The notes below the pieces were generated by a model. That model was not told the origin of the DNA. It did no database searches and worked only from the letters and a program-made list of their open reading frames with translations. A DNA stretch of 64,000 nucleotides, taken from the NCBI GenBank assembly GCA_035763885.1, contig DASUAH010000034.1, positions 104-64,103 of the forward strand. The letters run 5' to 3'. A program made the position numbers and the translations under genes. This DNA comes from Gemmatimonadales bacterium (GTDB taxonomy: Bacteria; Gemmatimonadota; Gemmatimonadetes; Gemmatimonadales; GWC2-71-9). This document shows, piece after piece, positions 32,630-54,705 of this stretch (position 1 is the stretch's first letter; every line of letters starts with the position of its first letter).

Positions 32630-33616
32630 TCAATCACGCAACGCCTTCGTCACCGCCCTCCAGACCCGGGCGCCCTCCGCCGCAAACGCGCCGGTCGAGA
32701 CCTGTCCGGTCGTACCGAGCCACTCCCTCGCGCACCGCGCCAGCCGCTCGGCCTCGGCATCACCGCGAACGATGGCGTAAGCTGTTGGACCCCAAGAGCT
32801 TTGGCCAACCCCCGGAGCCCCAGCCCCGGCGAATCGCTCGATCAGCATTCCGGTCGGGCCCGGCGCGAAGACGCCCCCCTGGCTCGCTGCGAACCAGCCG
32901 CCGGTTATGCGCTGGATCTCGCTCAGCGCCGCGCCGAAGGCCGCCAGGTCTCCATCGACGAGCGCCGGGAGAAGTCCCATGAGCGCCAGATGGGCCACGC
33001 GCTCCACCTCGCGGGCGGCCGGCGGGGGCAGGCGCCGGAACGCCGCGGCCTCGGCGTCGCCGCTCAGGCCCGGTGGACCCTCGGGGATCGCGAGCACGTA
33101 CCGCCACGAGGCCGGCAGCGGATACCGCGCGAGCAGCGGGGCGATGGCGTCGGACTCCGGCGGACGGCCGCCCTCGACGATGAACCCCCCGGACGCGAAC
33201 GCGTGCGTGCCGATGGCTGACCGGCGCCCGCGTCCCGCTGCGCGGGCGAGCTCCGGCGCCGCTGCGTCGATGCCGTGGAGCTCGGCGAGCGCCCGTGCCA
33301 CTGCGAGGCCGAGCTGGGTGCCCGAGCCGAGCCCCGCGTGGGCGGGGATCGCGCGGTGCACGCGGATGCGTGCCGCCCCCTGAAGGCCCCATCGCGCCGT
33401 CACGCGCCGGGCGAAGCTCGCCGCGCGCCTGGCGTCCGGCCCGGCGGCGGCGAACTCCGCCGCGCGCCCCACTTCGACGAGCAGCGACGGGGTGGGGATC
33501 GCCGCGCCCAGTCCGCCGAACCGGCGCCCCAGATCCCCCCTGAGGTCGAGCACGCCGAAGTGGAGACGCGCCGGCGCCTCCACGAACACCGCGTCCGCAT
33601 CGCCAGGCCCCGTCAC
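32630..33616 (-). CDS. beta-ribofuranosylaminobenzene 5-phosphate (beta-RFAP) synthase, H4MPT biosynthesis (GHMP-kinase fold)
   Basis: APARLHFGVLDL.G..GRRFGGLG, IPAHAGLGSGTQLGLAVA and SSWGPT motifs. The GTG 33616 start overlaps the DUF447 stop (GTGA). Confidence 0.85.
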   Translation of the reverse strand: MTGPGDADAVFVEAPARLHFGVLDLRGDLGRRFGGLGAAIPTPSLLVEVGRAAEFAAAGPDARRAASFARRVTARWGLQGAARIRVHRAIPAHAGLGSGTQLGLAVARALAELHGIDAAAPELARAAGRGRRSAIGTHAFASGGFIVEGGRPPESDAIAPLLARYPLPASWRYVLAIPEGPPGLSGDAEAAAFRRLPPPAAREVERVAHLALMGLLPALVDGDLAAFGAALSEIQRITGGWFAASQGGVFAPGPTGMLIERFAGAGAPGVGQSSWGPTAYAIVRGDAEAERLARCAREWLGTTGQVSTGAFAAEGARVWRAVTKALRD

Positions 33617-34203
33617 TTGCCCGCCCCCGCGCCCGCTTCCGCCCCCCCGGCCAGCCGCTCCGCCACGTAGCCCCGCAGCAGCTCCCAGGCCTCCTGCTCC
33701 CGGGGGCCGGCGGTCTTCTCCACCAGAACCGCGAGCCGCGCGAGCTCGTCGCGGACCTGGGCACCGGGCAGCAGGTGCACCCGGGTGGCGAGGATGGCGG
33801 CCTCGAGCACGGCGTGGCGGGCGCGATTGAACCCGATGAAATCGCGGCGGGTGCCCCGGTGGACCACCCGCGTGACGATGCGCGAGCGCGGGGGTGTGCC
33901 GTCGAGGTGCACCACTTCGAGCTCGCGCCAGGAGCACGCGGCGTCGAGGACCGCGCCCGGTACCGCCGACGCCGGCGACCAGGGAAACTCCGGGCTGGCG
34001 ATCGCGCTCCGGGCGAACAGCAGCACGTCGTCGGTCAGGTTGACCACGGCCGCGCGCGTGGCGCTCACGTTGCGGAAGGTCGTCGTGTCGAGAAACGGCT
34101 TGAGCACGATCGTCTCCTCGTCCCATTCGACACCCATGGGCGCGAAGTTGACCCGCCCGTCGGGCGCCAGCGACGTGACGATCGACTCGATGATGAGGGG
34201 CAT
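33613..34203 (-). CDS. DUF447 family protein (H4MPT-biosynthesis associated, flavin-reductase-like fold)
   Basis: 196 aa. MPLIIESIVTS...G.VNFAPMGV...T.T..N pattern. The family call is from memory and gene context. Confidence 0.7.
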   Translation of the reverse strand: MPLIIESIVTSLAPDGRVNFAPMGVEWDEETIVLKPFLDTTTFRNVSATRAAVVNLTDDVLLFARSAIASPEFPWSPASAVPGAVLDAACSWRELEVVHLDGTPPRSRIVTRVVHRGTRRDFIGFNRARHAVLEAAILATRVHLLPGAQVRDELARLAVLVEKTAGPREQEAWELLRGYVAERLAGGAEAGAGAGK

Positions 34204-34225: not shown

Positions 34226-34930
34226 CTATCCGCCGGTGTACCATGGCGCTTCGTGCGCACGCGAGGCCCGGCGCCGGTCCAGGCCCTCGGCCGACAGCTG
34301 ATAGCCGATGGCGGAGAGCCCGAGGCCGCCGTCCGCCGCCGCCGGTGCCTCGGCCGCGCGGGCCGCATCGGCGCCGAGGAACCGGGCCAGCATCCGGTAC
34401 CCATGCTCGGTCAGCACCGATTCGGGGTGGAACTGCACTCCCACCACCGGGTGCTCCGCGTGGCGGACCGCCATGATCTCGCCGTCATCCGACGTCGCCG
34501 TCACCCTGAGCCACGGCGGCACCGATCCCGGCGCGATCACGAGCGAATGGTACCGTGTGGCGAGCAGCGGGTTGGGGAGCCCCTGGAAGATGCCGGTGCC
34601 GTCGTGCCGCACGAGGGATGTCTTGCCGTGCATCGGCCGGCGGGCGCGCACGATCTCGGCGCCGTACGCCTCCCCGATGCACTGATGTCCCAGGCACACG
34701 CCCAGGATCGGGATCGTGGCGCCGAGCCGGCGCACCAGCTCGGTGGAGATGCCCGCCTCCTTCGGCGAACACGGGCCCGGCGAGATGATGATGTGCGACG
34801 GGCCGAGCCGCGCAACCTCCTCGATCGTGATCGCGTCGTGGCGGCGGACCACCGGCGTCTCGCCGAGCTCGCGCACGTAGCGTGCGAGGTTGTAGACGAA
34901 GGAGTCGTAGTTGTCGATGAGTAAGATCAT
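34226..34930 (-). CDS. pabA: aminodeoxychorismate/anthranilate synthase glutamine amidotransferase component
   Basis: MILLIDNYDSFVYNL, catalytic GVCLGHQ and GVQFHPES. About 45 aa of C-terminal extension. Confidence 0.85.
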   Translation of the reverse strand: MILLIDNYDSFVYNLARYVRELGETPVVRRHDAITIEEVARLGPSHIIISPGPCSPKEAGISTELVRRLGATIPILGVCLGHQCIGEAYGAEIVRARRPMHGKTSLVRHDGTGIFQGLPNPLLATRYHSLVIAPGSVPPWLRVTATSDDGEIMAVRHAEHPVVGVQFHPESVLTEHGYRMLARFLGADAARAAEAPAAADGGLGLSAIGYQLSAEGLDRRRASRAHEAPWYTGG

Positions 34931-34948
34931 GAGCTATGAGCAGCCACC

Positions 34949-36424
34949 TCAGACATGCGCCAGCGCCCGGATGATCCCCCGCGCCTTGTCCAGCGTCTCG
35001 CGGTACTCCTGCTCGGGGTCCGAATCCGCCACGATCCCGCCGCCGGCCTGAAAATACACCCGCCCGCCGAGCGCCACGGCGGTGCGGATCGCGATGCTGG
35101 TATCCATCTCGCCCGTGAGGCCCAGGTACCCGAGCGAGCCGCAGTACACGCCGCGCCGCGTCGGCTCCAGCTCGGCGATGATCTCCATCGCGCGCACCTT
35201 GGGGGCACCGGTGATCGAGCCGCCGGGAAACGCGGCGCGGATGAGTGCGACCGGATCGGCCCCGGGCTCGAGCTCGCCGACCACGGTCGAGACCAGGTGG
35301 TGCACGGTCGGATGGTGCTCGAGGGCGAAGAGCTCGGGTACGCGGACCGTCCCGGGCCGGCAGACGCGCGAGAGGTCGTTCCGGAGCAGATCCACGATCA
35401 TCACGTTCTCCGCGCGGTCCTTGTCGCTCTCGGCCAGCACCTGGCTGAGCAGGGCGTCGTGCATGGGGCCCAGCCCGCGCGGGCGGGTGCCCTTGATCGG
35501 GCGGGTCTCGACATGGGTGCCGGAGAGGCGGAGGAATCGCTCCGGTGAGACGCTGAGAATCTGATGGTCGCCGGCGTCGAACCACGCCCCGAACGCGGCC
35601 GGGTTCTGCCGCCGGAGGCGGCGATAGAGCGACCATGGGTGCTCTCCGAGCGGCGCCTCGAACCGCTGCGACAGATTGGCCTGGAAGATGTCGCCCGCGA
35701 GGATGTACTCGCGCACCCGCGCGACGGCGGACAGATAGCCGCGATGGGTGAACGTGGAGCGGAGTCCGATCTGCTCGGCGCTCTCGACGCCGTAGACCGG
35801 GAACGATGGGGCGCCGTCGGAGGAGGCGACCAGCCGAGGAGCGGGAGGGAGCTGCGGGGTACGGCTCGTCCGCTCGCCGCTCGCCAAGCGCCCGCGCACG
35901 AGTGCCAGTCGTTCCCCGGCCCTCCGGGTGCGTGCGGCCCCGTCGAGCGGCATTCCGGTCGACACGATCCACGCCGACCCCTCGCAGTGGTCCCAGGCGA
36001 TCACCCAGTCGTACACGCCCAGCAGCACGTCGGGCATTGCGAGGTCGTCGTAGCGCGGCGCCGGCAGCCGCTCGAGGGTGCTGCCCCAGTCGTACGCGAT
36101 GTAGCCCGCCGCCCCGCCCTGGAACGGCGGCAGACCCGCCACCCCGGGCGCGGCGAACGGGGCCAGCTCGGCGGCGATCGCGGCGAGGGCGTCCCCGCCG
36201 CTGCGGGTCCGGCGCCCGCCGGCATCCATCCTCTCGGTGGCGGAGCCCTTGCTGCGGACGACGACACACGGGTCCGCGCAGAGGAAGCTGTAGCGCCCGG
36301 TGCGCTCGTGATCGGCGGTGCTGTCGAGGAGGAGCACCAGCGGAAGGTCGGCGAAGCGCTCCGCCGCGTCGGCCGGATCCGGCACGGAGGCGAGCGGCTC
36401 GACCAACGGCACCGCGCGGCTCAC
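34949..36424 (-). CDS. pabB: aminodeoxychorismate synthase component I
   Basis: 491 aa chorismate-binding enzyme (GDIFQANLSQRF, PGGSITGAPK, RGVYCGSLGY). The pab rather than trp assignment is from context next to beta-RFAP synthase, which uses pABA. Confidence 0.8.
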   Translation of the reverse strand: MSRAVPLVEPLASVPDPADAAERFADLPLVLLLDSTADHERTGRYSFLCADPCVVVRSKGSATERMDAGGRRTRSGGDALAAIAAELAPFAAPGVAGLPPFQGGAAGYIAYDWGSTLERLPAPRYDDLAMPDVLLGVYDWVIAWDHCEGSAWIVSTGMPLDGAARTRRAGERLALVRGRLASGERTSRTPQLPPAPRLVASSDGAPSFPVYGVESAEQIGLRSTFTHRGYLSAVARVREYILAGDIFQANLSQRFEAPLGEHPWSLYRRLRRQNPAAFGAWFDAGDHQILSVSPERFLRLSGTHVETRPIKGTRPRGLGPMHDALLSQVLAESDKDRAENVMIVDLLRNDLSRVCRPGTVRVPELFALEHHPTVHHLVSTVVGELEPGADPVALIRAAFPGGSITGAPKVRAMEIIAELEPTRRGVYCGSLGYLGLTGEMDTSIAIRTAVALGGRVYFQAGGGIVADSDPEQEYRETLDKARGIIRALAHV

Positions 36425-37902
36425 TCGGTTTCCGCGGCGCGCGCGGCCCGGCGCGACCGCTGGGTGAGCTTGACGTGCTCGGCGCGGGGATCGTCCGGGG
36501 GCGTCAGATAGCCCCAGCTGAGTGCCCCTTCCTGCCGGTAGGTCTTGCCCAGCTGCAGCGCGAGCCTGGCCTTCATCAGCTCCCGGCCGAGGTAGAAGGC
36601 GTGCATGGGCTCATCGACGCCCAGCTGGGCGAAGATGGCCTGGACGTCGGTGCCGCGCACGAAGATCTCGTTGTTGAAGACGGTGATCGCGTCGCGGTCG
36701 GCGAAGATCCGGAAGTTCGGGTCCTTCACCGCGGCGTGCAGCTCGCGCAGCTCGGCCTCGCTGTAGCCGAGCACCTCGGGATCCTTCACCGTGACCAGCC
36801 GGTCGTCCACCCCCTTGGGGACCCGCCGTTCTCGCACGGCGTAGTGCATCAGGCGTCGCGCGACGTCGAGCTCGCGCACCGACCCGCGGGCCCACGGGAT
36901 CACCTCGGTCGTGAGCACGGCGCGGACGCCGACCTCCTCCGCGATCGCCATCAATACGGCGTTCACGCCGGTGGTGTCCGCCGCAGTGAGCTCGGTGATG
37001 TTGCCCACTCCCATGAGCTGCGCCGCGTCCGGATGGCGCCGGCGCACCTCGGCGTACCGCTCCAGGGACGCCATGAAGCCGAAGCCGATCGGCTCGATGA
37101 CCGGATCGACCAAATACGGCACCCCCCAACGCTCGAGCGCCGCGATGCTCCGGTCGAGCGTATCGAGTCCCGCGCCGAAGTCCGGGATCACCACGACCTT
37201 CCCGCCACCCTCGGCGACGTCCTGCGCCACGTCGAGGTTCGTGGCGTTCACGCTGAGCACGAGCTCGGCGCCGGCCGCGACCGCGGTCCGGATCTCGTCC
37301 GGATCGAAGGAATCGATGCTCACGCGGAGCCCCGCGCCGCGGAGCTCGCGCACCGACTCGCCGAGGTGCGGGAAGGACGCACCCGGGGTGCACCCGAGAT
37401 CGATGATGTCGGCGCCGTCCGCGCGGTACCGCTCCGCGGCGGCGCGGATCGCGTCGCGCGACAACTTCGCCGCGTTGTTGATCTCGGCCAGGATCTCGAT
37501 GCTGTAGGCGCCGTAATCGGGCGCCGCGGCGGCGCGGCCGAAGTAGGCGGGAATCTCGCGCAGGTCCTTCGGTCCCTTCTCCACGCGCACCCCGAACCGC
37601 TCCGCGATGACGGCCGGATCGCCCTCGCAGAGCCCCGGAATGAGCACGAGGTCCGTGCCGTCGGGCACCTGCAGGAAGCGCGCGATCCACGGCGCGGTCA
37701 TCAGGGCGGCCACCGTGATCTTGAGGACGGCGACATGCGCCTCGAAGGGCGGGTGCATGTCCGCCAGGGTGCGGCGGAGGGCCGGCTCGGCCAGCGTGCC
37801 GGTGACGAAGAGGACGCGGCGGATGGCCGGACGGCCGGACGGCGGGACGGCCGGGTGGCCGGTCCGCTCTTCGCTACGAGGACCGTCTGCCCCGGGGAGC
37901 AC
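36421..37902 (-). CDS. H4MPT-type dihydropteroate-synthase-like protein (MJ0301-like, with N- and C-terminal extra domains)
   Basis: Pterin-binding barrel (GADIIDLGCTPG...SIDSFDP...VLSVNA...DPVIEPIGFGF). The proposed start is GTG 37902. The track ORF 36421..39249 is a run-on through upstream genes. Confidence 0.8.
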   Translation of the reverse strand: MLPGADGPRSEERTGHPAVPPSGRPAIRRVLFVTGTLAEPALRRTLADMHPPFEAHVAVLKITVAALMTAPWIARFLQVPDGTDLVLIPGLCEGDPAVIAERFGVRVEKGPKDLREIPAYFGRAAAAPDYGAYSIEILAEINNAAKLSRDAIRAAAERYRADGADIIDLGCTPGASFPHLGESVRELRGAGLRVSIDSFDPDEIRTAVAAGAELVLSVNATNLDVAQDVAEGGGKVVVIPDFGAGLDTLDRSIAALERWGVPYLVDPVIEPIGFGFMASLERYAEVRRRHPDAAQLMGVGNITELTAADTTGVNAVLMAIAEEVGVRAVLTTEVIPWARGSVRELDVARRLMHYAVRERRVPKGVDDRLVTVKDPEVLGYSEAELRELHAAVKDPNFRIFADRDAITVFNNEIFVRGTDVQAIFAQLGVDEPMHAFYLGRELMKARLALQLGKTYRQEGALSWGYLTPPDDPRAEHVKLTQRSRRAARAAETE

Positions 37903-37934: not shown

Positions 37935-38315
37935 CTATCGCGGCTCCCCCGACCGCACCCACTTGTTGGGCGTCCCCTCCAGCGCGCCTCCGCTGGGCCG
38001 CCAGAGCACGTGCTCTTCGATCTTCCGGGCAAGCTCGAAGTCTTTGTCCGTGATCCCCCCGGCGGCGTGGTTCTGGAGCTTCACGATGACCCGACCCCAC
38101 GTCACCGTGAGGTCCGGGTGATGATAGGCCGCTTCCGCGAGATAGCCGATCGTATTGACGAGCATCAGCGTGGTGGGCCAACCGTCGGTCTTGTACACCC
38201 GCCGGATCCAGCCGTCCTCCAGATACCAGCCGGGGAGCTCCTTGAGCTTCTCGTTGATCTCGGCGTCGGTGTAGGTGCGTTCCTTGGTAGCAGGCATCGA
38301 TCCTCCTCGTGGCAT
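37935..38315 (-). CDS. pterin-4a-carbinolamine dehydratase (PCD/DCoH family)
   Basis: LPGW...F.....A..F...V...AE...HHPD....W..V...L.TH pattern (LPGWYLEDGWIRRVYKTDGW...AEAAYHHPDLTVTWGRVIVKLQNH). An alternative start is ATG 38297. Confidence 0.85.
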   Translation of the reverse strand: MPRGGSMPATKERTYTDAEINEKLKELPGWYLEDGWIRRVYKTDGWPTTLMLVNTIGYLAEAAYHHPDLTVTWGRVIVKLQNHAAGGITDKDFELARKIEEHVLWRPSGGALEGTPNKWVRSGEPR

Positions 38316-38402
38316 CTATCCGCCATCCGCCGCCGCCGGGTCCGCCGCCGATCGTTGCCGCGCCGCGCGGAGCGGCCGCACCCCGACCGATGGCGGATGG
38401 CT

Positions 38403-39197
38403 TCACATGACGACCCCGCCGTTCACTACGATCATCTGCCCGGTGACGAACGCCGCCTCGTCGGATACGAGATAGACCGCCGCGGCGGCGACATCCTCCG
38501 GTGTGCCCCAGCGGCCGAGCGGCGTCCGCTCCATGACTTCCTGGCGCCAGGCAGGGTCGGCGTTGGCGCCAAACGCGGTCTCGATGAACCCGGGGGCGAG
38601 CAGGTTCACCCGGATGCGGGGCGCGACGTCCCGCGCGAGCGACGTGCTGAAGCTCGCCACCCCGCCCTTGGCCGCGGCGTAGAGCCCGGGGTTCTCCCCC
38701 GCCATCCCGAACGATACGTGGTCCCAGGCCATATTGACGATCGTACCGCCGGCCGGCTGCTCCCGCATCAGCTCGACCGCGGCCCAGGAGGCGAGAATCG
38801 TCGCGCGGAGGTCGATGGCGAGCACGAGGTCGAGCTTCTCGCGCCGGGACAGCCTGCCGAACTCCGCGGTCAGGATGTCGGCGCCGGCATTGTTGATCCA
38901 CCCGTCGACGCGGCCGAACGCTGCTCGGGCCGCGGCACCCAGGCCGGTGACCTGCGCGTCGTTCGAGAGCTCGAGGGGCAGCACCTCCGCCCGCCGCCCG
39001 AATGCGCGCACGTCGGCAGCGGTCCGGTCGGCGCCCGGGAGGTTGCGGCGGTACGTGAGCGCGACATCGGCTCCTTCCCGTGCGCAGGCGAGCGCGATCG
39101 CCCGGCCGATGCCGCTCGATCCGCCGGTCACCAGCACGACCTTGCCGGCCAGGCGCCCCCCGCAGGCCTCCGCCGCGCCCCCCTCCCGTTGCGCCAC
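38403..39197 (-). CDS. short-chain dehydrogenase/reductase (SDR), possible pteridine/dihydropteridine reductase
   Basis: GKVVLVTGGSSGIGRAIA, NNAG and YAAAKGG catalytic motifs. GTG start. The functional guess is from operon context only. Confidence 0.85.
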   Translation of the reverse strand: MAQREGGAAEACGGRLAGKVVLVTGGSSGIGRAIALACAREGADVALTYRRNLPGADRTAADVRAFGRRAEVLPLELSNDAQVTGLGAAARAAFGRVDGWINNAGADILTAEFGRLSRREKLDLVLAIDLRATILASWAAVELMREQPAGGTIVNMAWDHVSFGMAGENPGLYAAAKGGVASFSTSLARDVAPRIRVNLLAPGFIETAFGANADPAWRQEVMERTPLGRWGTPEDVAAAAVYLVSDEAAFVTGQMIVVNGGVVM

Positions 39198-39522
39198 GCC
39201 GCCTCCCCCCTTGACCGGTTCCAGTGTGCCAACCCCTAACCGCTAACATATCTTGACGTTAGCATCTCACAAGGGAGCCGCGCCGATGGTCGTTGCGCGG
39301 CAGTCATCCGGACGGGCAGCCCCGCTTGCGAACGGCGGCCGCGATTGCAGGAGCGCCGGGGCGTGCCGCGAAGCACCAGACGGAGCCGGGCGACCCGGCC
39401 CCGCGGACATCGGCAAGTATCGCTGCGCCAACAACCTGCGCCACACCGCCGGCAGGGCATAGCGTTTGCCACTGTCAGGCACATCTCCCGGTCGTCAACT
39501 ACCTCGTCAGCTCTGGATCTCC

Positions 39523-42500
39523 ATGACGCTCGGTCGGGGCCTGCTGCGCAGCCGATTCGGTCGCCGTCTGGTGCTGCTGTTCGTCGGCTGCGCGGTGGTC
39601 CCGATGGCGCTGCTCGCGGTCCTGTCCTGGCGGCACATGACCCGCCAGCTCGAGCGCCAGAGCCAGTTGCGGCTCCATCAGGCGAACCGCGCCCTCGGTC
39701 GCGCGGTCTTCGAGCGGCTGCTGCTGCTCGAGGCGACGCTCAAGAACATCCCCCCCACGGCCATCGCCGAGCTGGCGCGCAGCGCGCTCGTCCCGGAGCC
39801 ACCCGCCGCCGGGCCGCCGGCTCGTACCGGCGGCGTCACGGGCGCAGTGACCCGCGCGCCGGTAGACGGGCGGGTCGCGCTCGGGGGGCTGAAAGACCGC
39901 CGAGGTCGGGCCGGGGACCCGCCAGCGCCTCCGGCCCCGAGCCACGATCCGGAGGCGAGCCGTGCGCTCGCCGTCGGGCTCGATCTCCTCGCCCGCAGCC
40001 GCTTCGCCGCACTCGAGTTCCAACCCGACGTCGGCCGCCGCCTGCCGGTCTTCGGCCGGCTTGACCGGGTCCCCGCCCTCACGCCCGCGGAGAGCGCGTT
40101 CGTCGGGGAGAGCCATACGCTCGTCGTCACCGAGCACGCCGACACCGGCGCCGCGCGGATCTATCTCGTGCGTCGCATGGATCGGCGTGAGGCGCGGGGT
40201 TTCTTCGTCGGGGAGGTGAGCCCGGCTTACCTGTGGGGCACGCGCGAGCAGGGCATGCCGTCGCCGGCGACGCATCTGGCGGTCGTGGATGACTCGGGTC
40301 ACGTGCTGTTCGGCCCGCCGCCGGTGACATCGGCGTGGGGGGGACCGGTGGACGATACGGCCGCAACGGATCCGGCCGAGGCGGGGCTGTCCTCGACTCG
40401 CGTGGAACCCGAGGTGGTCGCCAGCTACTGGCCGGTGCCGATCGAGAGCGTGTTCGGCGCTCCCGACTGGATCATCGTGCTGAGCGAGCCGAGGGAGGCT
40501 GTGGTCGGGCCGATGACCGATTTTGCGTCGACCTTCGCGCTCATCATCGCACTCTGCACCGGCGTCGTGCTGCTCCTCAGCATGAGCCAGATCCGGCGGA
40601 GTCTGATGCCGCTCGAGGAGCTGCAGGAGGGGACCCGCCGCATCGCGCTCCGTGACTTCGACACCCGTGTGGCGGTCACCAGCCACGACGAGTTCGCCGA
40701 GCTGGCGGAGTCGTTCAACTCGATGGCCACACGGCTCGGCCGGCAGTTCCGGGCGCTGGACACGGCCGCCGACATCGATCGTGCCGTGCTCAGCGCCACC
40801 GATGCCACCACCATCGTCCGGGCGGTGCTCGCGCGGCTCCCCGACGTCTATCCGTGCGCCGGCGCCTGCATCACCCTGTTCCCGGCCGACCGGGGCGGTG
40901 CCGGGCCGAGCTGGGTGAGGAGCTTCGGGGCCGCCGGGGTCCCGGAGCTGAGGCGGGTCGAGTTCGCGCCGGGTGAGCTGCGCGCGCTGGCCGCGCTTCC
41001 CGAGGTGCTCGAACTCGGCGACGGCGATCCGCTCCCCGCGTGCGTGCGGCCCCTCGCCGAACTGGGGCTCCGCTCCTTCGTCGTGCTGCCGCTCGCCTAC
41101 CAGCAGCAGCTTGCCGGCGTGCTGGTGCTCGGCGCCGCCGACGCGTCGCGGACGCCGGACGACCTGCTGCACGCCCGGCGGCTGGCCGACCAGGTCGCCG
41201 TGGCGCTGTCCAACGCGCGCATGATCGATCAGGTGCGCACGCTGGCGTACTTCGACAGCCTCACCGGGCTGCTCAACCGCGCGGCCTACAAGGAGCGCCT
41301 CGCGCGGGCGCTCGCGCTGGCGAAGCGGGACCGGCGGTCTGCGGCGGCGTTCTTCATCGACCTCGACAACTTCGGCCGCATCAACGACACGCTGGGACAT
41401 GAGCTGGGGGACGAGCTGCTCCGCCAGGTGGCCGGCCGCCTGCGCGCCTGCTGCGAGGCTGAGGAAAGTGGGCCGGGCCCCCGGGCGCGGCCCGAGGTGG
41501 CGCGCATCGGCGGTGACGAGTTCACCGTCCTCGTGGGCGGCCTGCCCCGGCCGGAAGACGCGGTCGGGCTGGCCCGGCGCATTCTCGCCGTGTTCGCGCC
41601 CTCCTTCCAGCTCGGCCAGCACGACATGTTCACGACGGCGAGTGTCGGCGTCGCGGTCTACCCGGAGGACGGCGAGGAGGTGGAGACCCTGCTCGCCCAC
41701 GCCGACACGGCGATGTACGAGGCGAAGCATCAGGGCGGCAATGGCTACCAGCTTTACTCGCGCTCCATGAACGCGACCGCGCTGCAGCGCCTCACCCTGG
41801 AGAACGATCTCCGGCGGGCGCTGGAGCGCGACGAGCTGGTGCTCCACTATCAGCCCATCGTCGAGGCCGCGACCGGCGTCATCGTCGGCGCGGAGGCGCT
41901 GGTGCGCTGGCGCCACCCCTCGCTGGGACTCCTGCTCCCGGGCGAGTTCATCGCCATCGCGGAGGAGAACGGGCTGATCGTGCCGCTGGGGGAGTGGGTG
42001 CTGCGCACGGCGTGCGCCCAGAACCGCGGGTGGCAGAGCGCGGGCCTGCCCCCGATCCGGGTCGTGGTCAACCTCTCCGGTCGGCAGCTCCGGCAAGGCA
42101 ACCTGATCGCCGGCGTGCGGGACGCGCTGGAAGCCGCGGGACTGGAGCCGGAGTGGCTCGGCCTCGAGCTCACCGAGAGCATGCTCATGGAACGCCAGCA
42201 CGAGGGCGTGTCGGCGCTGCAGGCGCTCCGGGCCATGGGCATCCAGCTCTCCATCGACGACTTCGGGACCGGCTATTCCTCCCTCAGTTACCTCAAGCAC
42301 TTCCCGGTCGATACGCTGAAGATCGATCGCTGCTTCGTGCGGGACCTCGCCAGCGTGCCCGACGACGCCGCGATCACAGCGGCGATCATCGCGATGGCGC
42401 ACGCGCTCGATCTCCTGGTGGTCGCCGAAGGCGTCGAGACCGAGGAGCACCTCGGCTTTCTCCGGGCGCAGGGATGCGACGAGGTCCAGGGACACCTGCT

Positions 42501-42600
42501 GGGCCGGCCGGTCCTGCCGGAGCGGTTCGCGGAATGGCTGGCGCGACCCCGGCCGGTGATCCGGAGCTCCAGGCGCACGACCGGGATCCGCTCGGCCTGA
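39523..42600 (+). CDS. membrane sensor diguanylate cyclase/phosphodiesterase (periplasmic domain-HAMP-GAF-GGDEF-EAL)
   Basis: Two TM helices flank a ~300-aa periplasmic region. HAMP (LMPLEELQEGTRRIALRDFD), intact RIGGDEFTV, and EAL motifs (EALVRW, ELTES, DDFGTGYSSL). The start may instead be at 39466. Confidence 0.9.
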   Translation: MTLGRGLLRSRFGRRLVLLFVGCAVVPMALLAVLSWRHMTRQLERQSQLRLHQANRALGRAVFERLLLLEATLKNIPPTAIAELARSALVPEPPAAGPPARTGGVTGAVTRAPVDGRVALGGLKDRRGRAGDPPAPPAPSHDPEASRALAVGLDLLARSRFAALEFQPDVGRRLPVFGRLDRVPALTPAESAFVGESHTLVVTEHADTGAARIYLVRRMDRREARGFFVGEVSPAYLWGTREQGMPSPATHLAVVDDSGHVLFGPPPVTSAWGGPVDDTAATDPAEAGLSSTRVEPEVVASYWPVPIESVFGAPDWIIVLSEPREAVVGPMTDFASTFALIIALCTGVVLLLSMSQIRRSLMPLEELQEGTRRIALRDFDTRVAVTSHDEFAELAESFNSMATRLGRQFRALDTAADIDRAVLSATDATTIVRAVLARLPDVYPCAGACITLFPADRGGAGPSWVRSFGAAGVPELRRVEFAPGELRALAALPEVLELGDGDPLPACVRPLAELGLRSFVVLPLAYQQQLAGVLVLGAADASRTPDDLLHARRLADQVAVALSNARMIDQVRTLAYFDSLTGLLNRAAYKERLARALALAKRDRRSAAAFFIDLDNFGRINDTLGHELGDELLRQVAGRLRACCEAEESGPGPRARPEVARIGGDEFTVLVGGLPRPEDAVGLARRILAVFAPSFQLGQHDMFTTASVGVAVYPEDGEEVETLLAHADTAMYEAKHQGGNGYQLYSRSMNATALQRLTLENDLRRALERDELVLHYQPIVEAATGVIVGAEALVRWRHPSLGLLLPGEFIAIAEENGLIVPLGEWVLRTACAQNRGWQSAGLPPIRVVVNLSGRQLRQGNLIAGVRDALEAAGLEPEWLGLELTESMLMERQHEGVSALQALRAMGIQLSIDDFGTGYSSLSYLKHFPVDTLKIDRCFVRDLASVPDDAAITAAIIAMAHALDLLVVAEGVETEEHLGFLRAQGCDEVQGHLLGRPVLPERFAEWLARPRPVIRSSRRTTGIRSA

Positions 42601-43297: not shown

Positions 43298-44084
43298 TCC
43301 CGTAGTGGATGTGGCGCGTGGCGTGGCCGTCCACGCGCAGGGCGGCGACCGGTCGGCCTACGCCCCGGTGAAGTCTGCCGTGGCGCCGGAGCACCCCGGC
43401 GACCCGCTCGCGCTGGTCCGGGCCTACCGTGACGTGCTGGGCGCGCGGGTGTGTTATGCGGCCGACCTCGACGCCCTGCAGGGCGGCCCCATTCAGCGGG
43501 GGCTCATCCGGGACCTGGCCGCGTTCCAGACCGGCTTCGCCGGCGAGCTGCTGGTGGATGCCGGCGCGTGCGATGCGGACGGCGTGCTGGAGGTGCTCTC
43601 CTGCGGGGCGTCCGATGCCGTCGTCGGCCTGGAGACCCTGCACGCGTTCGCCGACCTGCGGGCGATCGTGGACGCGGCCGGGGCGAGCCGGGTGATCTTC
43701 GGGCTGGACCTGCGGCTCGGCACGCCGATGATCCATCCGCAGCTGCAGGACGTGTGCGGGGCGCCGGATCCCGTGAGCCTGGCCGGGCAGGCGGCCGACT
43801 GCGGTGTGACGAGCATGCTGGTGCTCGACCTCGGCCGGATCGGCACGGGCTGCGGCGTGGACCTCTCCCTGGTCGAGGCCCTGCGACGGCGATGCCCGGA
43901 CGCGCGACTGCTGGCCGGTGGCGGGGTGCTGACGCGCCGGGATCTCGAGCGGATGGCGGGCGCGGGGTGCGACGGGGCCCTCGTCGCGAGCGCGGTTCAC
44001 GCCGGCCGGATCACCGCGGAGGACGTGGCCGCGCTGCGGCACCGCCGGCCGGCGGCTCAATCCGGGGCGAGCGTCTCCCGGTAG
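43287..44084 (+). CDS. HisA/HisF-family (beta/alpha)8-barrel protein, H4MPT-biosynthesis associated
   Basis: MEIIPVVDVARGVAV....GD, AADLDAL, GGGV motifs. GGGAG Shine-Dalgarno. The 3-prime end overlaps the convergent PTPS-like gene by 28 nt. Confidence 0.8.
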   Translation: MEIIPVVDVARGVAVHAQGGDRSAYAPVKSAVAPEHPGDPLALVRAYRDVLGARVCYAADLDALQGGPIQRGLIRDLAAFQTGFAGELLVDAGACDADGVLEVLSCGASDAVVGLETLHAFADLRAIVDAAGASRVIFGLDLRLGTPMIHPQLQDVCGAPDPVSLAGQAADCGVTSMLVLDLGRIGTGCGVDLSLVEALRRRCPDARLLAGGGVLTRRDLERMAGAGCDGALVASAVHAGRITAEDVAALRHRRPAAQSGASVSR

Positions 44085-44560
44085 GTCGCTGACTGCCCGA
44101 AGTTCTCCTCCACTTCGAGCTCGAGCTGCGTCAGGTGGGTGTGCCCCTCGCGGGCGAGCTGGTCGCGCACCGCCGTGCCGAGGTACTGCGCGAGCATTTC
44201 GGCCGTACTGTTCGGGATCGGCAGCAGCGCACAGTCGCCCCGCGGAAACATGTATGTCGCCTTGCCGAAGTAGTCGACGTGCAGCATCCCGTCCTGCTCG
44301 CGGTACGACAGCTTCGGGTTCCGGGTGGGCAGCAGGACCTTGTGGTCGATCTCGTCCACCAGCCCCCGTACCATCCGCTTCAGCACGCTGAAATCGAGCA
44401 CGAACAGGCACTCGGCGTCGACCGTGCCCTCGACCGCGACGCCGACGCGATAGTTGTGGCCGTGAAGCGACTCACACTGGTGGCCGCGGAAGGTGATGAA
44501 GTGCGCCGAGGCGAAGACCAGGTAGTCCTTGCTGACCTCGACGCGGAACTTACTCTGCAC
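44057..44560 (-). CDS. 6-pyruvoyl-tetrahydropterin synthase / QueD-family protein
   Basis: FASAHFITFRGHQCESLHGHNYRV (the C-x-x-x-HGH zinc/catalytic motif). GTG 44560 start within track ORF 44057..44929. Confidence 0.8.
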   Translation of the reverse strand: MQSKFRVEVSKDYLVFASAHFITFRGHQCESLHGHNYRVGVAVEGTVDAECLFVLDFSVLKRMVRGLVDEIDHKVLLPTRNPKLSYREQDGMLHVDYFGKATYMFPRGDCALLPIPNSTAEMLAQYLGTAVRDQLAREGHTHLTQLELEVEENFGQSATYRETLAPD

Positions 44561-45445: not shown

Positions 45446-46237
45446 CTACTGCTGTACGCCGATGAGCGCGGTGAGCCCGCCGCTTGCGAAGTTCGCGAGA
45501 TCGTCGCCCACCTTCTTGAACGCCGGAGTGGCGGTCCCCTTCGCCACGGCCTCGGACGACTCGAAGCAGAGCTCGGCCTGCCGGTACTTTGCCGCCGGGC
45601 TCCCGTCGAGGTTCGACTCGAACTTCGTGAGATCGGCACGGACGAAGCCGATCTCGCCCTGGCCGGCGCTCACCAGGGGGAGGTGGGTGTCGGCGTAGTA
45701 GCGCTCGAACACGGCGTGGTCCTTCGGGTGCTCGTAGATCACCGTGACCAGCGCGCGGCAGGCGGCCGGACTCTCTTCTCCGGTTTCAGTCGCGATCATG
45801 GCGATCAGACCGCCGGTCGCGAAGTTCGCGAGATCGTCGCCCACCTTCTTGAATGCGGGGGTGGCGGTTCCCTTCCTGAGGTCGTCCATCGAGCCGAAGT
45901 ACAGCTCCGCCTGGCGGTAGAACGTCGGCTCCTTGCCATCCAGTGTCGACACGAACTTCGTCAGCTCCGCGGTGGTGAACCCGATCTCACCCTGGCCGCC
46001 GCTCACCAGCGGCAGGTGCACCTCCCGGTAGTATTTCTCGAACGCCGCCGTGTCCTTCGGCTGCAGGTAGATCACCGTCACGATCGCCCGCGGGCCCGCC
46101 GCGGCCGCCGGGGCCGGCGCGGAGTCGGCCGAGGCGGCGGGCTTGTCAGCGGTTCGGCCGCAGGCGAGGGCGAGGGCCACGAGGACGACGGGGGCGGGGC
46201 GCATCTGGTCTCTCCGCTGATGATGGTGAGCATTCAC
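45446..46237 (-). CDS. tandem EthD-domain lipoprotein
   Basis: Lipobox VVLVALALAC (likely start MRPAP at 46204). Two ~105-aa EthD-like modules each begin IVTVIY/LVTVIYxxPKDxxxFExYY and end KGTATPAFKKVGDDLANFA(T/S)GGL. Confidence 0.8.
   Translation of the reverse strand: MNAHHHQRRDQMRPAPVVLVALALACGRTADKPAASADSAPAPAAAAGPRAIVTVIYLQPKDTAAFEKYYREVHLPLVSGGQGEIGFTTAELTKFVSTLDGKEPTFYRQAELYFGSMDDLRKGTATPAFKKVGDDLANFATGGLIAMIATETGEESPAACRALVTVIYEHPKDHAVFERYYADTHLPLVSAGQGEIGFVRADLTKFESNLDGSPAAKYRQAELCFESSEAVAKGTATPAFKKVGDDLANFASGGLTALIGVQQ
45486..45853 (-). repeat. internal tandem duplication (period 333 bp) within the EthD gene
   Basis: An identical 35-nt string, gcgaagttcgcgagatcgtcgcccaccttcttgaa, occurs at 45486-45520 and 45819-45853. 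The flanks are similar but diverged. Confidence 0.85.
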
Positions 46238-51544: not shown

Positions 51545-52894
51545 CTAGGCGGATGCGCCGGGCAGACTCACCGCGGGCGGGAGGCGGTTGCCGCCGAGGA
51601 GCGCACGCACCCGGTCACGGATGCCGGTGAGGATCTCCTGGTCGCTCGGGTACGGCGAGTCGAACGCCGGCCGCAGCGTGATCGGCACGTCATCCATGCG
51701 GTACACCGTCCCGGTCACGTTGATGCCGTAGGTGGCCGTGGTGAACGCCACCCGTGCCAGCTGGCTCGTGTGGGTGACCTTGGGGTCGAGCGTGATGACG
51801 GGGATATGCCGGAGGTGCTCGATCGCCGCCTTCGGGAAATTGGACGCGGGATCGCTCGCGATGATCAGCGCCGCGTCGGCGTCGCCGCGCGACAGGGTGT
51901 CCACCGTGGTGAACTCGCCCGGGTTGAACCGGGGGAAGCCGCGGCTGAAGTTCACCCCGAACGGGAAGCCGGTCTGCCACGACACCACGTTGTCCGCCCC
52001 GGTCACGTTGCCGTGCCCCCGCACGGGCTTGGCAACCCAGTGCGCGAACTCGTTGAGGTCCGTCGCCAGCGCGAGCAGCGCACCGGAGTTGAAGTGCCGC
52101 CCGCGGTTCATCGTGAGACCCATGCCGAACAGCAGCGCGCCGTAGCGGCAGCTCTTCATCCGCGCGACGAGATCCTCGAGGACGGCGAGCGACACGCCGG
52201 TCCGCCGCTCGATCGACGGATCGACCTTGCGCCCCCTGACCAGGGCGCGGAGCGCCCACAGCACCTCGAAATCGGTCCGGGGCTTGACCTGGATGAAGAT
52301 GTCGGCCACCGGCGTGCTCGCCGTGCGACGCACGTCGACCAGCACCACCGTCCGGTCCTTCCGGCCGTTGGGCGTGTACAGGCCCTTCGCGGTCACCGCG
52401 TAGCGGGTGAAGAGCCGCGGGTGCGCCTCGGCCGGGTTCCCTCCCCAGAAGACGACCATGTCGGCGCGGTTCTTGATCTCGCCCAGCGAGGCGGTGCTCT
52501 CGCCCACGCCCTGGAACGCGATCCCCGACGGGCCGTGGCAGACCGAGGTCGTGGTGTCCACCGTGCCCCCGATCATGTCGCCGATGGACACGGCGACCCG
52601 CTGCGCCTCGCAGGTCGTATCCGAGAGCCCGTAGATGATGGGGAACCGGGCCGTGGCGAGGATCTGCGCCGCTTCCTCGATCGCGTCCTCGACCGTGGCC
52701 TCCCGGCCCCCGATCAGCGCTGCCGGGCGCGCCTCCACGCCGTGCTCCCGGAACCACGCCTTCCCGAGCACGCAGGCGTTTTCGGCCTTGGTGATGCGCT
52801 TGTGCTCGAGGTCCACGGTCAGCACCATGTCGTCGCACACGCAGCCGCAGAACGTGCAGGTGGCGTTCTCGACCACCCGGGTGTTTTCGCTCAT
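51545..52894 (-). CDS. fwdB: formylmethanofuran dehydrogenase subunit B, catalytic-type (Mo/W-bisPGD fold with Cys-His ligand motif)
   Basis: 449 aa. N-terminal Cys cluster ATCTFCGCVCDD, TSVCHGPSG (Cys119 = TGC at 52538-52540, His120) and VRGHGNVTGADN. ATGA overlap with the fwdD stop. Confidence 0.9.
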   Translation of the reverse strand: MSENTRVVENATCTFCGCVCDDMVLTVDLEHKRITKAENACVLGKAWFREHGVEARPAALIGGREATVEDAIEEAAQILATARFPIIYGLSDTTCEAQRVAVSIGDMIGGTVDTTTSVCHGPSGIAFQGVGESTASLGEIKNRADMVVFWGGNPAEAHPRLFTRYAVTAKGLYTPNGRKDRTVVLVDVRRTASTPVADIFIQVKPRTDFEVLWALRALVRGRKVDPSIERRTGVSLAVLEDLVARMKSCRYGALLFGMGLTMNRGRHFNSGALLALATDLNEFAHWVAKPVRGHGNVTGADNVVSWQTGFPFGVNFSRGFPRFNPGEFTTVDTLSRGDADAALIIASDPASNFPKAAIEHLRHIPVITLDPKVTHTSQLARVAFTTATYGINVTGTVYRMDDVPITLRPAFDSPYPSDQEILTGIRDRVRALLGGNRLPPAVSLPGASA

Positions 52895-53268
52895 CCCGCT
52901 ACTCCTCCAGAGGGCGACGCGTCCTCCCGCACCGGCTCCACCTCCACCTCGAGGTTCTTGGAGATGGGCATCCCGCTCGCCGCCGTGTCACTCGCCATGA
53001 GCTCGCTGGACGCGGGCCCGTAGGCCATGAACAGGACGCCAGGCGGCAAGTCCTTGGTCTCGCGACTCTTGCACCGTACGACGGTCTCCCCGCCCGGCGT
53101 CCGCAGCCGCACCCGGCTGTTGTTCGCCAGCCCGAGACGGGCCATGTCCTCGACGTTCATCTCGACGGTGGTCGTCAGGTCCACGTATTCCGCGCCGAGC
53201 TTTCCGGCGCACAGGGAGGTCCCCTGCTTGCTGGAGCGCCCGCCGATCAGGGTCATCACCTCAGGCAT
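52891..53268 (-). CDS. fwdD: formylmethanofuran dehydrogenase subunit D (molybdopterin dinucleotide-binding beta-barrel domain)
   Basis: 125 aa. LIGGRSSKQG......K...Y......VEMN.EDM..LG......V.L....G..VV.C...........G..FM pattern typical of FwdD/FmdD. Confidence 0.85.
   Translation of the reverse strand: MPEVMTLIGGRSSKQGTSLCAGKLGAEYVDLTTTVEMNVEDMARLGLANNSRVRLRTPGGETVVRCKSRETKDLPPGVLFMAYGPASSELMASDTAASGMPISKNLEVEVEPVREDASPSGGVAG

Positions 53269-53320: not shown

Positions 53321-54705
<1,385 letters not shown>

Follow-up and report, generated by a model that had tools for sequence, protein, structure and literature searches.

A candidate dihydromethanopterin reductase of the SDR fold, paired with a pterin-4a-carbinolamine dehydratase, in a tetrahydromethanopterin operon of Gemmatimonadales

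Described reductases and dehydratases of pterin metabolism

Formaldehyde oxidation linked to tetrahydromethanopterin (H4MPT) is central to aerobic methylotrophy. The enzymes described for the reduction of dihydromethanopterin are DmrA, which is DHFR-like, and the FMN flavoprotein DmrB/AfpA/DmrX. Bacterial Dmr proteins are known from two lineages only (PMC5020050, PMC6193120), and the same studies report that Planctomycetes have neither Afp/DmrB nor DmrA, their DHFR homologues being all of the DfrA type. Among enzymes of the SDR fold, the points of comparison are PTR1, the pteridine reductase of trypanosomatids, and FolM, which in bacteria reduces dihydromonapterin and dihydrofolate. The dihydro-to-tetrahydro step of PTR1 resembles that of DHFR, in that the proton comes from water and not from the active-site Tyr (PMC1618733, PMC8996148). 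The canonical pterin-4a-carbinolamine dehydratases (PCD/DCoH) are represented by PhhB, which is the partner of FolM in the tetrahydromonapterin cycle, and by PCBD1, which is paired with the SDR-fold reductase QDPR. A PCD gene has also been seen next to an H4MPT gene, as the ‘pcbD-mptG’ pair listed for Methylosinus trichosporium OB3b with no function proposed (PMC3615186), and as an observation the link between PCD and H4MPT is thus not new. Beyond this pair, a search of the literature on PCD together with methanopterin, methanol dehydrogenase or methylotrophs returned nothing relevant.

The operon and its recurrence across phyla

The window, by which we mean the whole stretch of 64,000 nucleotides analysed here, comes from a soil Gemmatimonadales MAG, and contains a 38-kb H4MPT/methanofuran/XoxF island. 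Inside this island, a sequence-only reading had placed an SDR and a PCD at the head of an operon for H4MPT pterin biosynthesis, and Pfam, NCBIfam and the translations bear this out for both open reading frames and for the genes downstream. All of the genes lie on the minus strand, in the order SDR, PCD, DHPS-like, PabB, PabA, DUF447 and RFAP synthase, with successive gaps of 87, about 32, -4, 18, 22 and -4 nt. The SDR (264 aa, 38403..39197) starts with a GTG at 39197, with the Shine-Dalgarno sequence GGGGAGG 5 nt upstream, and is followed by the PCD (126 aa, 37935..38315). Next comes a DHPS-like gene of the MptH/orf20 type (36421..37902; TIGR00284, 8e-58; DUF6513, Pterin_bind and DUF4346, a domain make-up read from the orthologue at locus L001). 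Its 5' end is uncertain: the sole in-frame ATG, GTG or TTG past the PCD stop is the GTG at 37902, and the orthologues start about 29 residues further in, at a point where the window has no start codon. Its 3' end overlaps by 4 nt the start of the gene for a PabB-type aminodeoxychorismate synthase component I (34949..36424; TIGR00553, 362.7 bits against a cutoff of 328.4), an enzyme that would supply the arylamine branch. A PabA-type glutamine amidotransferase (GATase; 34226..34930, by Pfam) and DUF447 of the orf19 type (33613..34203, by Pfam and synteny) follow, and a beta-RFAP synthase (MptG; 32630..33616; TIGR00144, 169.9 bits against a cutoff of 113.5) ends the operon. DUF447 is a universal gene of H4MPT biosynthesis that has no assigned step in the pathway. 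The operon holds pabBA and no pabC, and we considered the PCD as a substitute for ADC lyase; we found no evidence for this, and its intact catalytic motif favours ordinary chemistry.

Upstream of the SDR start, an intergenic region of 325 nt (39198..39522) extends to a divergent GGDEF-EAL gene and is presumed to hold the promoter of the operon, though a promoter scan, of a kind that is uninformative for this phylum, showed no sigma-70 consensus in it. The intergenic gaps of the operon hold no terminator-like sites in a scan whose number of sites is not above that in shuffled sequence, and the single minus-strand match, 35073-35061, falls within pabB. Elsewhere in the island, a PTPS paralogue on the same strand (44057..44560) carries by profile matches and motif the C-E-x-L-HGH active site, the Glu-bearing PTPS-III type, and is likely to be a FolB bypass that gives the pathway its 6-hydroxymethyl-dihydropterin.

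The sequence-only reading had also found neither an aromatic hydroxylase nor DmrA in the window, and both absences hold. Pfam detects no DHFR_1, Flavoprotein (PF02441) or Biopterin_H domain in 51 of the 57 called open reading frames of the window, the other six being the first three (by eye ECF sigma, anti-sigma and PDZ proteins), two efflux-pump genes (11136-13234) and a SoxYZ/XoxJ-like gene. In tblastn searches of the window with a DmrA-like protein, DmrB, Fae, FolB and E. coli FolA (the last an approximate query), nothing significant was found. A crude motif scan of 1.64 Mb of related loci likewise revealed no aromatic amino-acid hydroxylase.

The arrangement is much too regular to be due to chance: in 60 of the 61 loci with both genes the SDR immediately precedes the PCD, at a median distance of 45 nt, and the order SDR-PCD-DHPS-like is found in 48/49 loci of Gemmatimonadota, in 7/10 of Acidobacteriota and on several planctomycete contigs, with differing flanking genes; counted by taxon, it is present in about 55 species of Gemmatimonadota, in Vicinamibacteria and in several lineages of planctomycetes. 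Two fusions were found, one of SDR to PCD (P0026), which hints that the two proteins may interact, and one of HPPK to SDR (P0330). The three-phylum synteny, the fusions and the presence of the PCD subfamily in H4MPT islands support a link of the SDR and the PCD to H4MPT pterin metabolism. Two observations count against the role proposed below: one Vicinamibacteria locus (L064) has PCD and DHPS-like genes with no SDR, and many planctomycete SDRs of the same W-D type are located away from any H4MPT gene. The neighbours of the PCD in Zavarzinella are unrelated genes and are uninformative.

The distribution of the SDR is complementary to that of DmrA and DmrB. Among 36 plasmids and chromids with a DHPS-like gene, DmrB is present on 27 and a DmrA-like protein on 9, so that 35 of the 36 have one or the other, and none carries an orthologue of the window SDR; its top match in the plasmid collection has at most 41% identity and lies on unrelated replicons. 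Conversely, neither DmrA nor DmrB has a match in the window, nor in some 70 loci of Gemmatimonadota, Acidobacteriota and Planctomycetota with flanks of up to 10 kb, and the SDR is present in planctomycete H4MPT clusters. In the available data, which comprise islands and genes on the same replicon, the two distributions are mutually exclusive. Position follows the same pattern, since DmrB in proteobacterial islands most often adjoins the DHPS-like gene directly at its 5' end, or overlaps it there, and this slot is occupied by SDR-PCD in the window. The phyletic pattern does not, however, separate a protein that replaces Dmr from one that works with PTPS, because the SDR co-varies with the PTPS-III gene to the same extent. 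Gemmatimonadota, Acidobacteriota and Planctomycetota have the two genes, Proteobacteria have neither and rely on FolB, and in some planctomycetes the SDR directly follows PTPS.

The active sites of the SDR and the PCD

The SDR was earlier called classical, and this holds for the window protein alone. Pfam assigns it to adh_short_C2 (183 bits, 8e-54) and adh_short (128 bits, 3e-37), above the gathering score, and its translation contains TGGSSGIG at residues 24-31, NNAG at 102-105 and YAAAK at 173-177. Across the orthologues, the cofactor motifs TGxxxGxG and NNAG are invariant, the first reading TG[GAS]SSGIG. The catalytic residues are another matter, as the tetrad Asn-Ser-Tyr-Lys is not kept in the family. 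Position 173, the Tyr of YAAAK, is F in 31, Y in 25 and L in 1 of 57 genome orthologues; in a planctomycete set of 120 sequences, the motif could be parsed in 62 (58 unparsed), and all 62 have Phe (59) or Leu (3) there. The Ser position is W or D, and Asp129 aligns at the expected site of the tetrad Asn. What is invariant in the alignment of the 57 orthologues is W158, D159 and K177, where W158-D159 follows strand beta5.

The comparison with PTR1 and FolM gives resemblances on some counts and differences on others. All three have the SDR fold and an NADPH-type loop after beta2 (LTYRRN in the window SDR, LHYHRS in PTR1 and VSYRTH in FolM). Asp159 falls, together with Asp181 of PTR1 and the Asp of FolM, in the MAFFT column of the catalytic Ser of ordinary SDRs, a tentative correspondence obtained from approximate reference sequences and only by way of a 2-residue insertion, the placement of which lies in a loop of moderate model confidence. 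Unlike PTR1 and FolM, the window SDR has two extra residues and the invariant Trp before this Asp, and lacks the TGX3RXG motif; the Tyr of their Asp-Tyr-Lys triad is not conserved in its family, being Phe in most orthologues; and its gene lies in an H4MPT setting instead of one for folate or biopterin. It also scores well below the NCBIfam cutoffs of their families (140.8 against 288 for pteridine reductase, NF006598; 140.4 against 325 for TmpR, NF012208), and generic glucose-1-dehydrogenase and FabG models outscore the pteridine reductase models on it. A search of the PDB with the AF2 model (pLDDT 88.8) returned generic FabG, glucose dehydrogenase and acetoin reductase folds with no discrimination among them, a sequence search of the PDB gave the same FabG-like picture, and neither favoured PTR1 or FolM. 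As judged from sequence and the predicted fold, the SDR thus stands at least as near to FabG as to PTR1, FolM or DHPR. It is not related in sequence or fold to DmrA, DmrB or DmrX; Pfam finds in it neither a DHFR domain (PF00186) nor that of the archaeal flavoprotein (PF02441), and tblastn with a DmrA-like protein and DmrB does not match it. If it catalyzes their reaction, it would resemble DmrA in using NADPH directly, but would do so on a Rossmann/SDR scaffold. An invariant Asp and a dispensable Tyr would fit the reduction of a dihydropterin C=N bond better than that of a carbonyl.

The PCD is by contrast a conventional member of its family in its catalytic residues. It matches Pterin_4a (PF01329, COG2154) with 92.4 bits against a threshold of 26 (2e-26), scores 97 bits with NF002017, the NCBIfam model of 4a-hydroxytetrahydrobiopterin dehydratase, which is above the equivalog cutoff of 80, and has the intact catalytic motif E-AAY-HHP-DLTVT-W-x9-H-x8-D. 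When the motif is written as [EDKH]-x3-H-[HN]-[PCS]-x5,6-[YWF]-x9-[HW]-x8,15-D, it is found in 78 of the 88 PCD matches over all loci, and the remainder are truncated matches. In all these respects the protein resembles PhhB and PCBD1, and like PCBD1 it is paired with an SDR-fold reductase. It differs from them in having no hydroxylase partner in sight and in belonging to a distinct subfamily, embedded in H4MPT islands and marked by a C-terminal extension. The tail of the window protein, LWRPSGGALEGTPNKWV, is specific to this subfamily, and a looser form, W-[RQ]-P...G-x-L-x-G-x-P, is conserved in 88 loci. Identity within the subfamily is about 60-70% across phyla (60-63% between the window PCD and those of islands in Azospirillum, Paraburkholderia and Phyllobacterium) and at most 41% to other PCDs.

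The association of this subfamily with H4MPT genes extends to Azospirillum, Phyllobacterium, Paraburkholderia, Methyloligella and others. Of the plasmids, 28 have a member with at least 50% identity, and every one of them also holds a DHPS-like gene; in Proteobacteria the PCD gene heads fhcBADC or mptG-mtdB-mch operons, being co-transcribed with fhc genes in Alphaproteobacteria and with mptG-mtdB-mch in Betaproteobacteria, and not with a hydroxylase. The OB3b pair is similar in tying a PCD gene to mptG and H4MPT genes, and differs in that the Proteobacteria have no SDR partner. That one PCD subfamily goes with H4MPT islands in four or more phyla offers a setting for the old puzzle of why a PCD is kept by so many bacteria that have no aromatic amino-acid hydroxylase. 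We also considered whether orfY could be a PCD, and rejected this, since orfY is MyfA, an ATP-grasp ligase (PMC8141765).

A possible redox module for the pterin ring of H4MPT

We propose, tentatively and with somewhat more doubt than confidence, that the SDR is a new type of NADPH-dependent dihydromethanopterin reductase, which works with the PCD as a 4a-hydroxy-H4MPT dehydratase. The two would form a module for the redox chemistry of the pterin ring of H4MPT. The SDR would bring 7,8-dihydromethanopterin to the tetrahydro state at the expense of NADPH, and may also reduce a quinonoid form or a late dihydropterin intermediate, thereby filling in Gemmatimonadota, Vicinamibacteria and Planctomycetota the role of DmrA or of the flavoproteins DmrB/DmrX. 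Hydride would pass from NADPH to C6, and N5 would be protonated through a network of carboxylate and water, as in the dihydro-to-tetrahydro step of PTR1 and DHFR; the carboxylate in the SDR would be the invariant Asp159, aided by the His, Arg or Gln at position 160, and the usual SDR Tyr would be unnecessary. The PCD would act as a genuine 4a-hydroxy-tetrahydropterin dehydratase on 4a-hydroxy-H4MPT, which may arise from H4MPT and O2, and would yield the quinonoid dihydro form before it can rearrange, so that the SDR could return it to H4MPT. Of this scheme, we infer the substrates of both proteins, the direction of the reactions and the absence of DmrA and DmrB from the rest of these genomes. 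It builds on two ideas of the sequence-only reading. That of a non-orthologous dihydromethanopterin reductase gains real, if indirect, support from the distribution complementary to Dmr, the DmrB slot, the Planctomycetes and the predicted active site, and loses from a global similarity that ties the SDR no more closely to PTR1, FolM or DHPR than to FabG; that of a repair of oxidised H4MPT by PCD and SDR together would be compatible with the observations.

A broader formulation, which we regard as rather unlikely in its entirety, would make the W-D type SDR a third independent class of dihydromethanopterin reductase, one that has given up canonical Ser/Tyr chemistry for DHFR-like, Asp-assisted imine reduction and fills the gap in Planctomycetes, Gemmatimonadota and Acidobacteriota, and would make ‘pcbD’ part of a new cycle for the repair of oxygen damage to H4MPT in aerobic users across phyla. 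If true, a conserved and cloneable SDR, for which the assay is clear, would close the gap left by DmrA and DmrB, neither of which is reported for Planctomycetes; pathway calls for the abundant methylotrophic Gemmatimonadota and Acidobacteriota of soils would improve; and the SDR family would gain a member that works without its hallmark Tyr. The presence of PCD in H4MPT islands points to cofactor repair as a cost of using an ‘anaerobic’ coenzyme in air.

Other explanations have to be weighed against the proposed reductase. Unlikely, though deserving of attention, is the case in which a canonical Dmr is encoded elsewhere in the genome, and the SDR is a quinonoid dihydropterin reductase (an analogue of DHPR) acting with the PCD, a partner that binds NADP without catalysing a reaction, or a FabG-like enzyme that happens to sit in the operon and is unrelated to it. 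Our Dmr searches covered the window and flanks of up to 10 kb, the global similarity of the SDR is indeed to FabG-like enzymes, and a family that has lost the canonical Ser and Tyr may equally have lost redox catalysis. However, the cofactor motifs, W-D and K177 are strongly conserved in three phyla and two fusions exist, which argues for a selected, pathway-specific function, and 35 of 36 proteobacterial H4MPT replicons have a Dmr along with the DHPS-like gene on one replicon, while about 70 SDR islands show none. A somewhat weaker candidate, and one we think distinctly improbable, has the SDR acting with PTPS and HPPK on an unconjugated precursor, as sepiapterin reductase does with PTPS, by reducing a side-chain carbonyl (of 6-pyruvoyl-tetrahydropterin or a 6-formyl or 6-acyl pterin), either to give the alcohol for pyrophosphorylation by HPPK or to clear a by-product. 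The co-variation of the SDR with the island PTPS across Gemmatimonadota, Acidobacteriota and Planctomycetota would be expected from this, as would the HPPK-SDR fusion and the location of the SDR immediately 3' of PTPS in three loci (L080, L092 and L094). Yet carbonyl reduction by an SDR requires Ser-Tyr-Lys, and here the Ser is missing and the Tyr is mostly Phe; moreover, the active site of the island PTPS is of the PTPS-III type, and such enzymes require no reductase, since they reportedly make 6-hydroxymethyl-dihydropterin directly. PTPS-III enzymes have been listed as validated (PMC3223725).

Two further readings are, in our view, very unlikely, and to a similar degree. The SDR may serve H4MPT assembly at some other reduction, most probably the one that opens the ribofuranosyl ring in the DHPS-like product and leaves a ribityl group, with hydride delivered onto an aza-quinone methide. 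The SDR shares an operon with DHPS-like, MptG and DUF447 genes, a pair of Asp and His might donate a proton to the departing ring oxygen, and no enzyme is known to be assigned to ring opening in the White/Rasche pathway. But this step is universal, so that a lineage-restricted enzyme would be unexpected for it; proteobacterial islands lack the SDR and do have DUF447, a flavin-reductase-like candidate for the same step; and both the close coupling to the PCD and the fusion to HPPK would be left unexplained. Alternatively, the SDR and the PCD, with PTPS, may make and recycle a separate, unconjugated tetrahydropterin for a pterin-dependent oxygenase encoded elsewhere, the H4MPT neighbourhood reflecting shared precursors only. 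There is a bacterial precedent in FolM (an SDR), PhhB (a PCD) and PhhA with tetrahydromonapterin, the PCD retains all of its catalytic residues, and a PTPS gene is close by. This reading has to contend with the lack of a hydroxylase in the window (Pfam) and in the 1.64 Mb of related loci (crude motif scan), and with a PCD subfamily that follows H4MPT islands specifically, as on 28/28 plasmids, and in Proteobacteria goes with fhc or mptG-mtdB-mch and not with a hydroxylase.

Finally, the window has neither mtdB nor fae, and we considered the SDR as a stand-in for methylene-H4MPT dehydrogenase. The match of MtdB to the SDR is weak (E = 3e-4) and confined to the glycine-rich region of the Rossmann fold. 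Both fae and mtdB were reported in these genomes by Butterfield 2016 (PMC5103831), and in a locus from another Gemmatimonadales genome (L049) Fae-MtdB lies just upstream of DUF1464-Mch. As Gemmatimonadota have MtdB and Fae, the SDR is not needed as a methylene-H4MPT dehydrogenase.

An SDR-PCD pair at the head of the H4MPT operon

Genes in the window (G+C, 71%) were called by third-position G+C, and a Pfam scan took in 51 of the 57 called ORFs. The first 26 kb hold housekeeping genes unrelated to what follows, and the remainder (26.4-64 kb) is a single 38-kb methylotrophy island comprising XoxF, XoxJ and cytochrome c genes, an H4MPT biosynthesis operon, the methanofuran genes MfnB and MfnE-like, PTPS, CitG, a tandem-EthD gene, Mch, two Fhc sets, an FwdB/FwdD-like pair, three ATP-grasp ligases, a hydantoinase-like gene and DUF1464. 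The H4MPT/methylotrophy island itself is already known (PMC5103831). Seven of its minus-strand genes form one run, SDR-PCD-DHPS-like-PabB-PabA-DUF447-MptG, whose members are separated by short gaps or overlap by 4 nt; a window scan found no terminator-like sites in the intergenic gaps. The sequence-only reading had placed a short-chain reductase (SDR) and a pterin-4a-carbinolamine dehydratase (PCD) at the operon head; both genes are real, at 38403-39197 (-) and, directly after it, 37935-38315 (-). Its further statement that the window carries neither an aromatic amino-acid hydroxylase nor a DHFR-like (DmrA-type) gene also holds by tblastn and by Pfam on 51 of 57 ORFs, searches which likewise returned no DmrB flavoprotein in the window.

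An alignment of island PCDs, run against a single GTDB genome for each species, recovered at least 571 relatives, and the gene content of the best 80 loci was determined by local tblastn with 33 reference proteins. Among these best 80, the SDR is present in 48 of 49 loci from Gemmatimonadota and 7 of 10 from Acidobacteriota (mostly Vicinamibacteria), and one planctomycete genome (UBA1146) also has SDR-PCD-DHPS-like(-PabB-PabA)-DUF447-MptG. PCD lies directly downstream of the SDR in 60 of the 61 loci holding both, at a median gap of 45 nt. When the planctomycete SDR was used as query for a homologue search, genomic context look-ups gave a common core with varying flanks: CitG-PTPS-SDR-PCD-DHPS-like-PabB, AA-kinase-SDR-PCD-DHPS-like and, in one case, two units with PTPS-SDR apart from PCD-DHPS-like-PabB. 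Two fusions, found once each, link the SDR to the pterin branch: an SDR-PCD protein joined by a 4-residue linker, SGGS (P0026, L003:1685-2863), and an HPPK fusion to a WD-type SDR (P0330, L093:26-1276). Both are on short metagenome contigs, and either may be an assembly or frameshift artefact. In one Vicinamibacteria genome, an ORF of 178 aa that contains an HExxH motif occupies the SDR slot upstream of PCD-DHPS-like (L064:1643-2179). At some other loci (L048, L070), PCD adjoins PabB and the DHPS-like gene is absent.

PCD subfamily and reductase distribution

A tblastn search of 72,556 plasmids with PCD returned 28 records at 51-64% identity, followed by an abrupt fall to at most 41%, and all 28 fall within the set of 36 replicons with a DHPS-like H4MPT gene. 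In Azospirillum and Phyllobacterium, PCD heads fhcBADC with mptG divergent from it; the Paraburkholderia gene stands at the front of mptG-mtdB-orf-mch-rimK-citG-fae. Similar layouts occur in chromosomal loci of Methyloligella, Methyloceanibacter and further Alpha- and Betaproteobacteria. PCD is a member of an H4MPT-island subfamily, which keeps the catalytic HHP...H...D and adds a conserved C-terminal tail. Between Gemmatimonadota and Proteobacteria, PCD retains about 60% identity and the DHPS-like protein about 42%. The PCD-mptG pairing has previously been listed, as 'pcbD-mptG', in an account of Methylosinus trichosporium H4MPT gene islands that gives it no function (PMC3615186). This was the single mention of a PCD-H4MPT association in the literature searched, where its scale and specificity were not found; PCDs of hydroxylase-less organisms are otherwise only loosely linked to 'Moco metabolism' (PMC3223725).

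Only two bacterial lineages of dihydromethanopterin reductase (Dmr) have been described, and Planctomycetes are reported to lack Afp/DmrB, their DHFR homologues all clustering with ordinary DfrA (PMC5020050, PMC6193120). DmrB is encoded on 27 of the 36 DHPS-like replicons, in most of which its gene touches or overlaps the DHPS-like gene's 5' end, and a DmrA-like 'dihydrofolate reductase family protein' (Azospirillum) on 9; one or the other is found on 35, both occurring together on one replicon. None of the 36 carries an orthologue of the window SDR, for which the top match in the whole plasmid collection was at most 41% identical and on unrelated replicons. Conversely, neither DmrA nor DmrB was found within 10 kb in any SDR-bearing locus examined, or in the window's 38-kb island. 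Across the replicons and flanks of up to 10 kb examined, the SDR distribution is thus the complement of the known Dmr enzymes.

The main confounder of this argument is that the SDR co-varies with PTPS as well, since the same three phyla (Gemmatimonadota, Acidobacteriota, Planctomycetota) have a PTPS with a Glu-bearing C-E-x-L-HGH site, and Proteobacteria have FolB instead. In the window, this PTPS paralogue (44057-44560, minus strand; Cys and Glu, PTPS-III type) takes the slot held by dihydroneopterin aldolase in proteobacterial islands, and C-E precedes HGH in 46 of 47 island PTPS genes extracted.

Active site and proposed function

The motifs on which the SDR had been called classical (TGGSSGIG, NNAG, YAAAK) are present in its translation, so that the label suits the window sequence, but it does not extend to the family, in which the catalytic Tyr and Ser are not conserved. 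Of 57 genome orthologues, 31 carry Phe at the Tyr position of YAAAK, 25 retain Tyr and 1 has Leu; in the 62 of 120 planctomycete homologues fitting the parsing pattern, it is Phe in 59 and Leu in 3. No Ser stands at its canonical place three residues past the beta5 Asn: genome orthologues share N-x-[SAG]-W-D-[HRQ], in which neither W nor D varies, and 114 of the 120 planctomycete homologues have N-x-G-W-D-Q. There is likewise no variation at Lys177, in the Gly motif or in NNAG. An AF2 model (pLDDT 88.8) places W158-D159 just past strand beta5, at the usual Ser site. In a MAFFT alignment, Asp159 shares a column with PTR1 Asp181, the FolM Asp and FabG Ser138, past a two-residue insertion; the match to PTR1/FolM is a lead and not proof. 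The SDR differs from PTR1/FolM in lacking the TGX3RXG motif and in NCBIfam scores far under the cutoffs, and PDB sequence and fold searches returned only relatives of FabG, glucose dehydrogenase and acetoin reductase. The second, dihydro-to-tetrahydro step of PTR1 is described as resembling that of DHFR, its proton being drawn from water and not from Tyr (PMC1618733, PMC8996148); by analogy, a Tyr-independent, Asp-bearing site would suit C=N reduction of a dihydropterin, not carbonyl reduction of the sepiapterin-reductase type. A WD-type subgroup (N-I-G-W-D-Q) on planctomycete-like contigs (L091:8001-10404, L095:7001-9998, L097:4058-6623) has an altronate-dehydratase-like gene (GD_AH) downstream, in L095 after a 150-aa ORF, glycosyltransferase or methyltransferase genes upstream and no H4MPT gene nearby; this may be a paralogue serving some other function, or simply reflect a scattered planctomycete genome.

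We tentatively propose that the SDR is a reductase of the H4MPT pterin ring, its 'LTYRRN' loop pointing to NADPH as cofactor, which would provide the Dmr step in phyla that lack both DmrA and DmrB. Tetrahydropterin reacting with O2 would yield 4a-hydroxy-H4MPT, which PCD would dehydrate to the quinonoid dihydro form; the SDR would re-reduce this form in the window's lineage, as DmrA or DmrB would among Proteobacteria. Such repair fits four observations: in Proteobacteria, PCD is co-transcribed with genes for C1 oxidation; its catalytic site is intact; no hydroxylase lies nearby; and PCD is paired with whichever reductase each lineage has. We hold the proposal at somewhat less than even confidence because substrates and activities are deduced, and Dmr absence was judged from islands rather than whole genomes. 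That a canonical Dmr lies elsewhere in the genome, with the SDR acting only as a DHPR or being non-catalytic, appears rather unlikely. The SDR-PTPS adjacency and the HPPK-SDR fusion would favor action on an unconjugated pterin alongside PTPS/HPPK; however, the absent Ser/Tyr and the signature of PTPS-III argue against this role, and we regard it as unlikely. A reductive ring-opening step in H4MPT assembly is poorly matched by an SDR restricted to certain lineages and seems quite improbable, and we would give as little weight to a separate unconjugated tetrahydropterin cycle serving an unseen oxygenase.

The SDR is thus a candidate third, non-orthologous Dmr, accompanied by an unexplained conserved dehydratase, and the acknowledged Dmr gap becomes a simple experimental set. 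In the literature searched, we found neither the SDR-PCD module and its three-phylum spread, nor the complementarity of the SDR with DmrA/DmrB, nor its non-canonical active site.

Other genes of the island and related loci

Between 47222 and 58626 (-) lie two formyltransferase/hydrolase-like sets (two FTR, two amidohydrolase FhcA, two GXGXG FhcC, one FhcB), with FwdB-like molybdopterin subunit (51545-52894) and FwdD-like (52891-53268) genes, and an FprA/GltD-like pyridine-nucleotide oxidoreductase (53321-54709) between the sets; together they may form a true formyl-methanofuran dehydrogenase that has an electron-input protein of its own. The tandem-EthD gene (45446-46237, -; two EthD domains, lipoprotein-like N-terminus) keeps its place between citG and mch in most Gemmatimonadota loci and, to our knowledge, has no known role in methanofuran or H4MPT pathways. 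Divergent from the SDR operon is a gene for a HAMP-GAF-GGDEF-EAL protein (39523-42600, +), which many Gemmatimonadales also carry, flanked by the SDR operon on one side and the mfnE-like gene on the other, and through which the island may be under c-di-GMP control. The operon includes pabB and pabA (34226-36424, -), and no pabC (aminodeoxychorismate lyase) was found in the window's island.

Bordering a planctomycete-type H4MPT cluster (L096:14651-14771) is the start of a 615-aa protein with B12-binding and radical SAM domains, reminiscent of the archaeal methanopterin C-methylase; we know of no bacterial H4MPT methylation enzymes. At the window end, DUF1464 (63477-63935, -) lies beside mfnB. 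In L049:1-2293, Fae and MtdB homologues precede the DUF1464 orthologue, and therefore fae and mtdB of the window's lineage are probably just beyond coordinate 64000. Given that MtdB and Fae occur in Gemmatimonadota (L049; PMC5103831), the idea of the SDR as methylene-H4MPT dehydrogenase was rejected.
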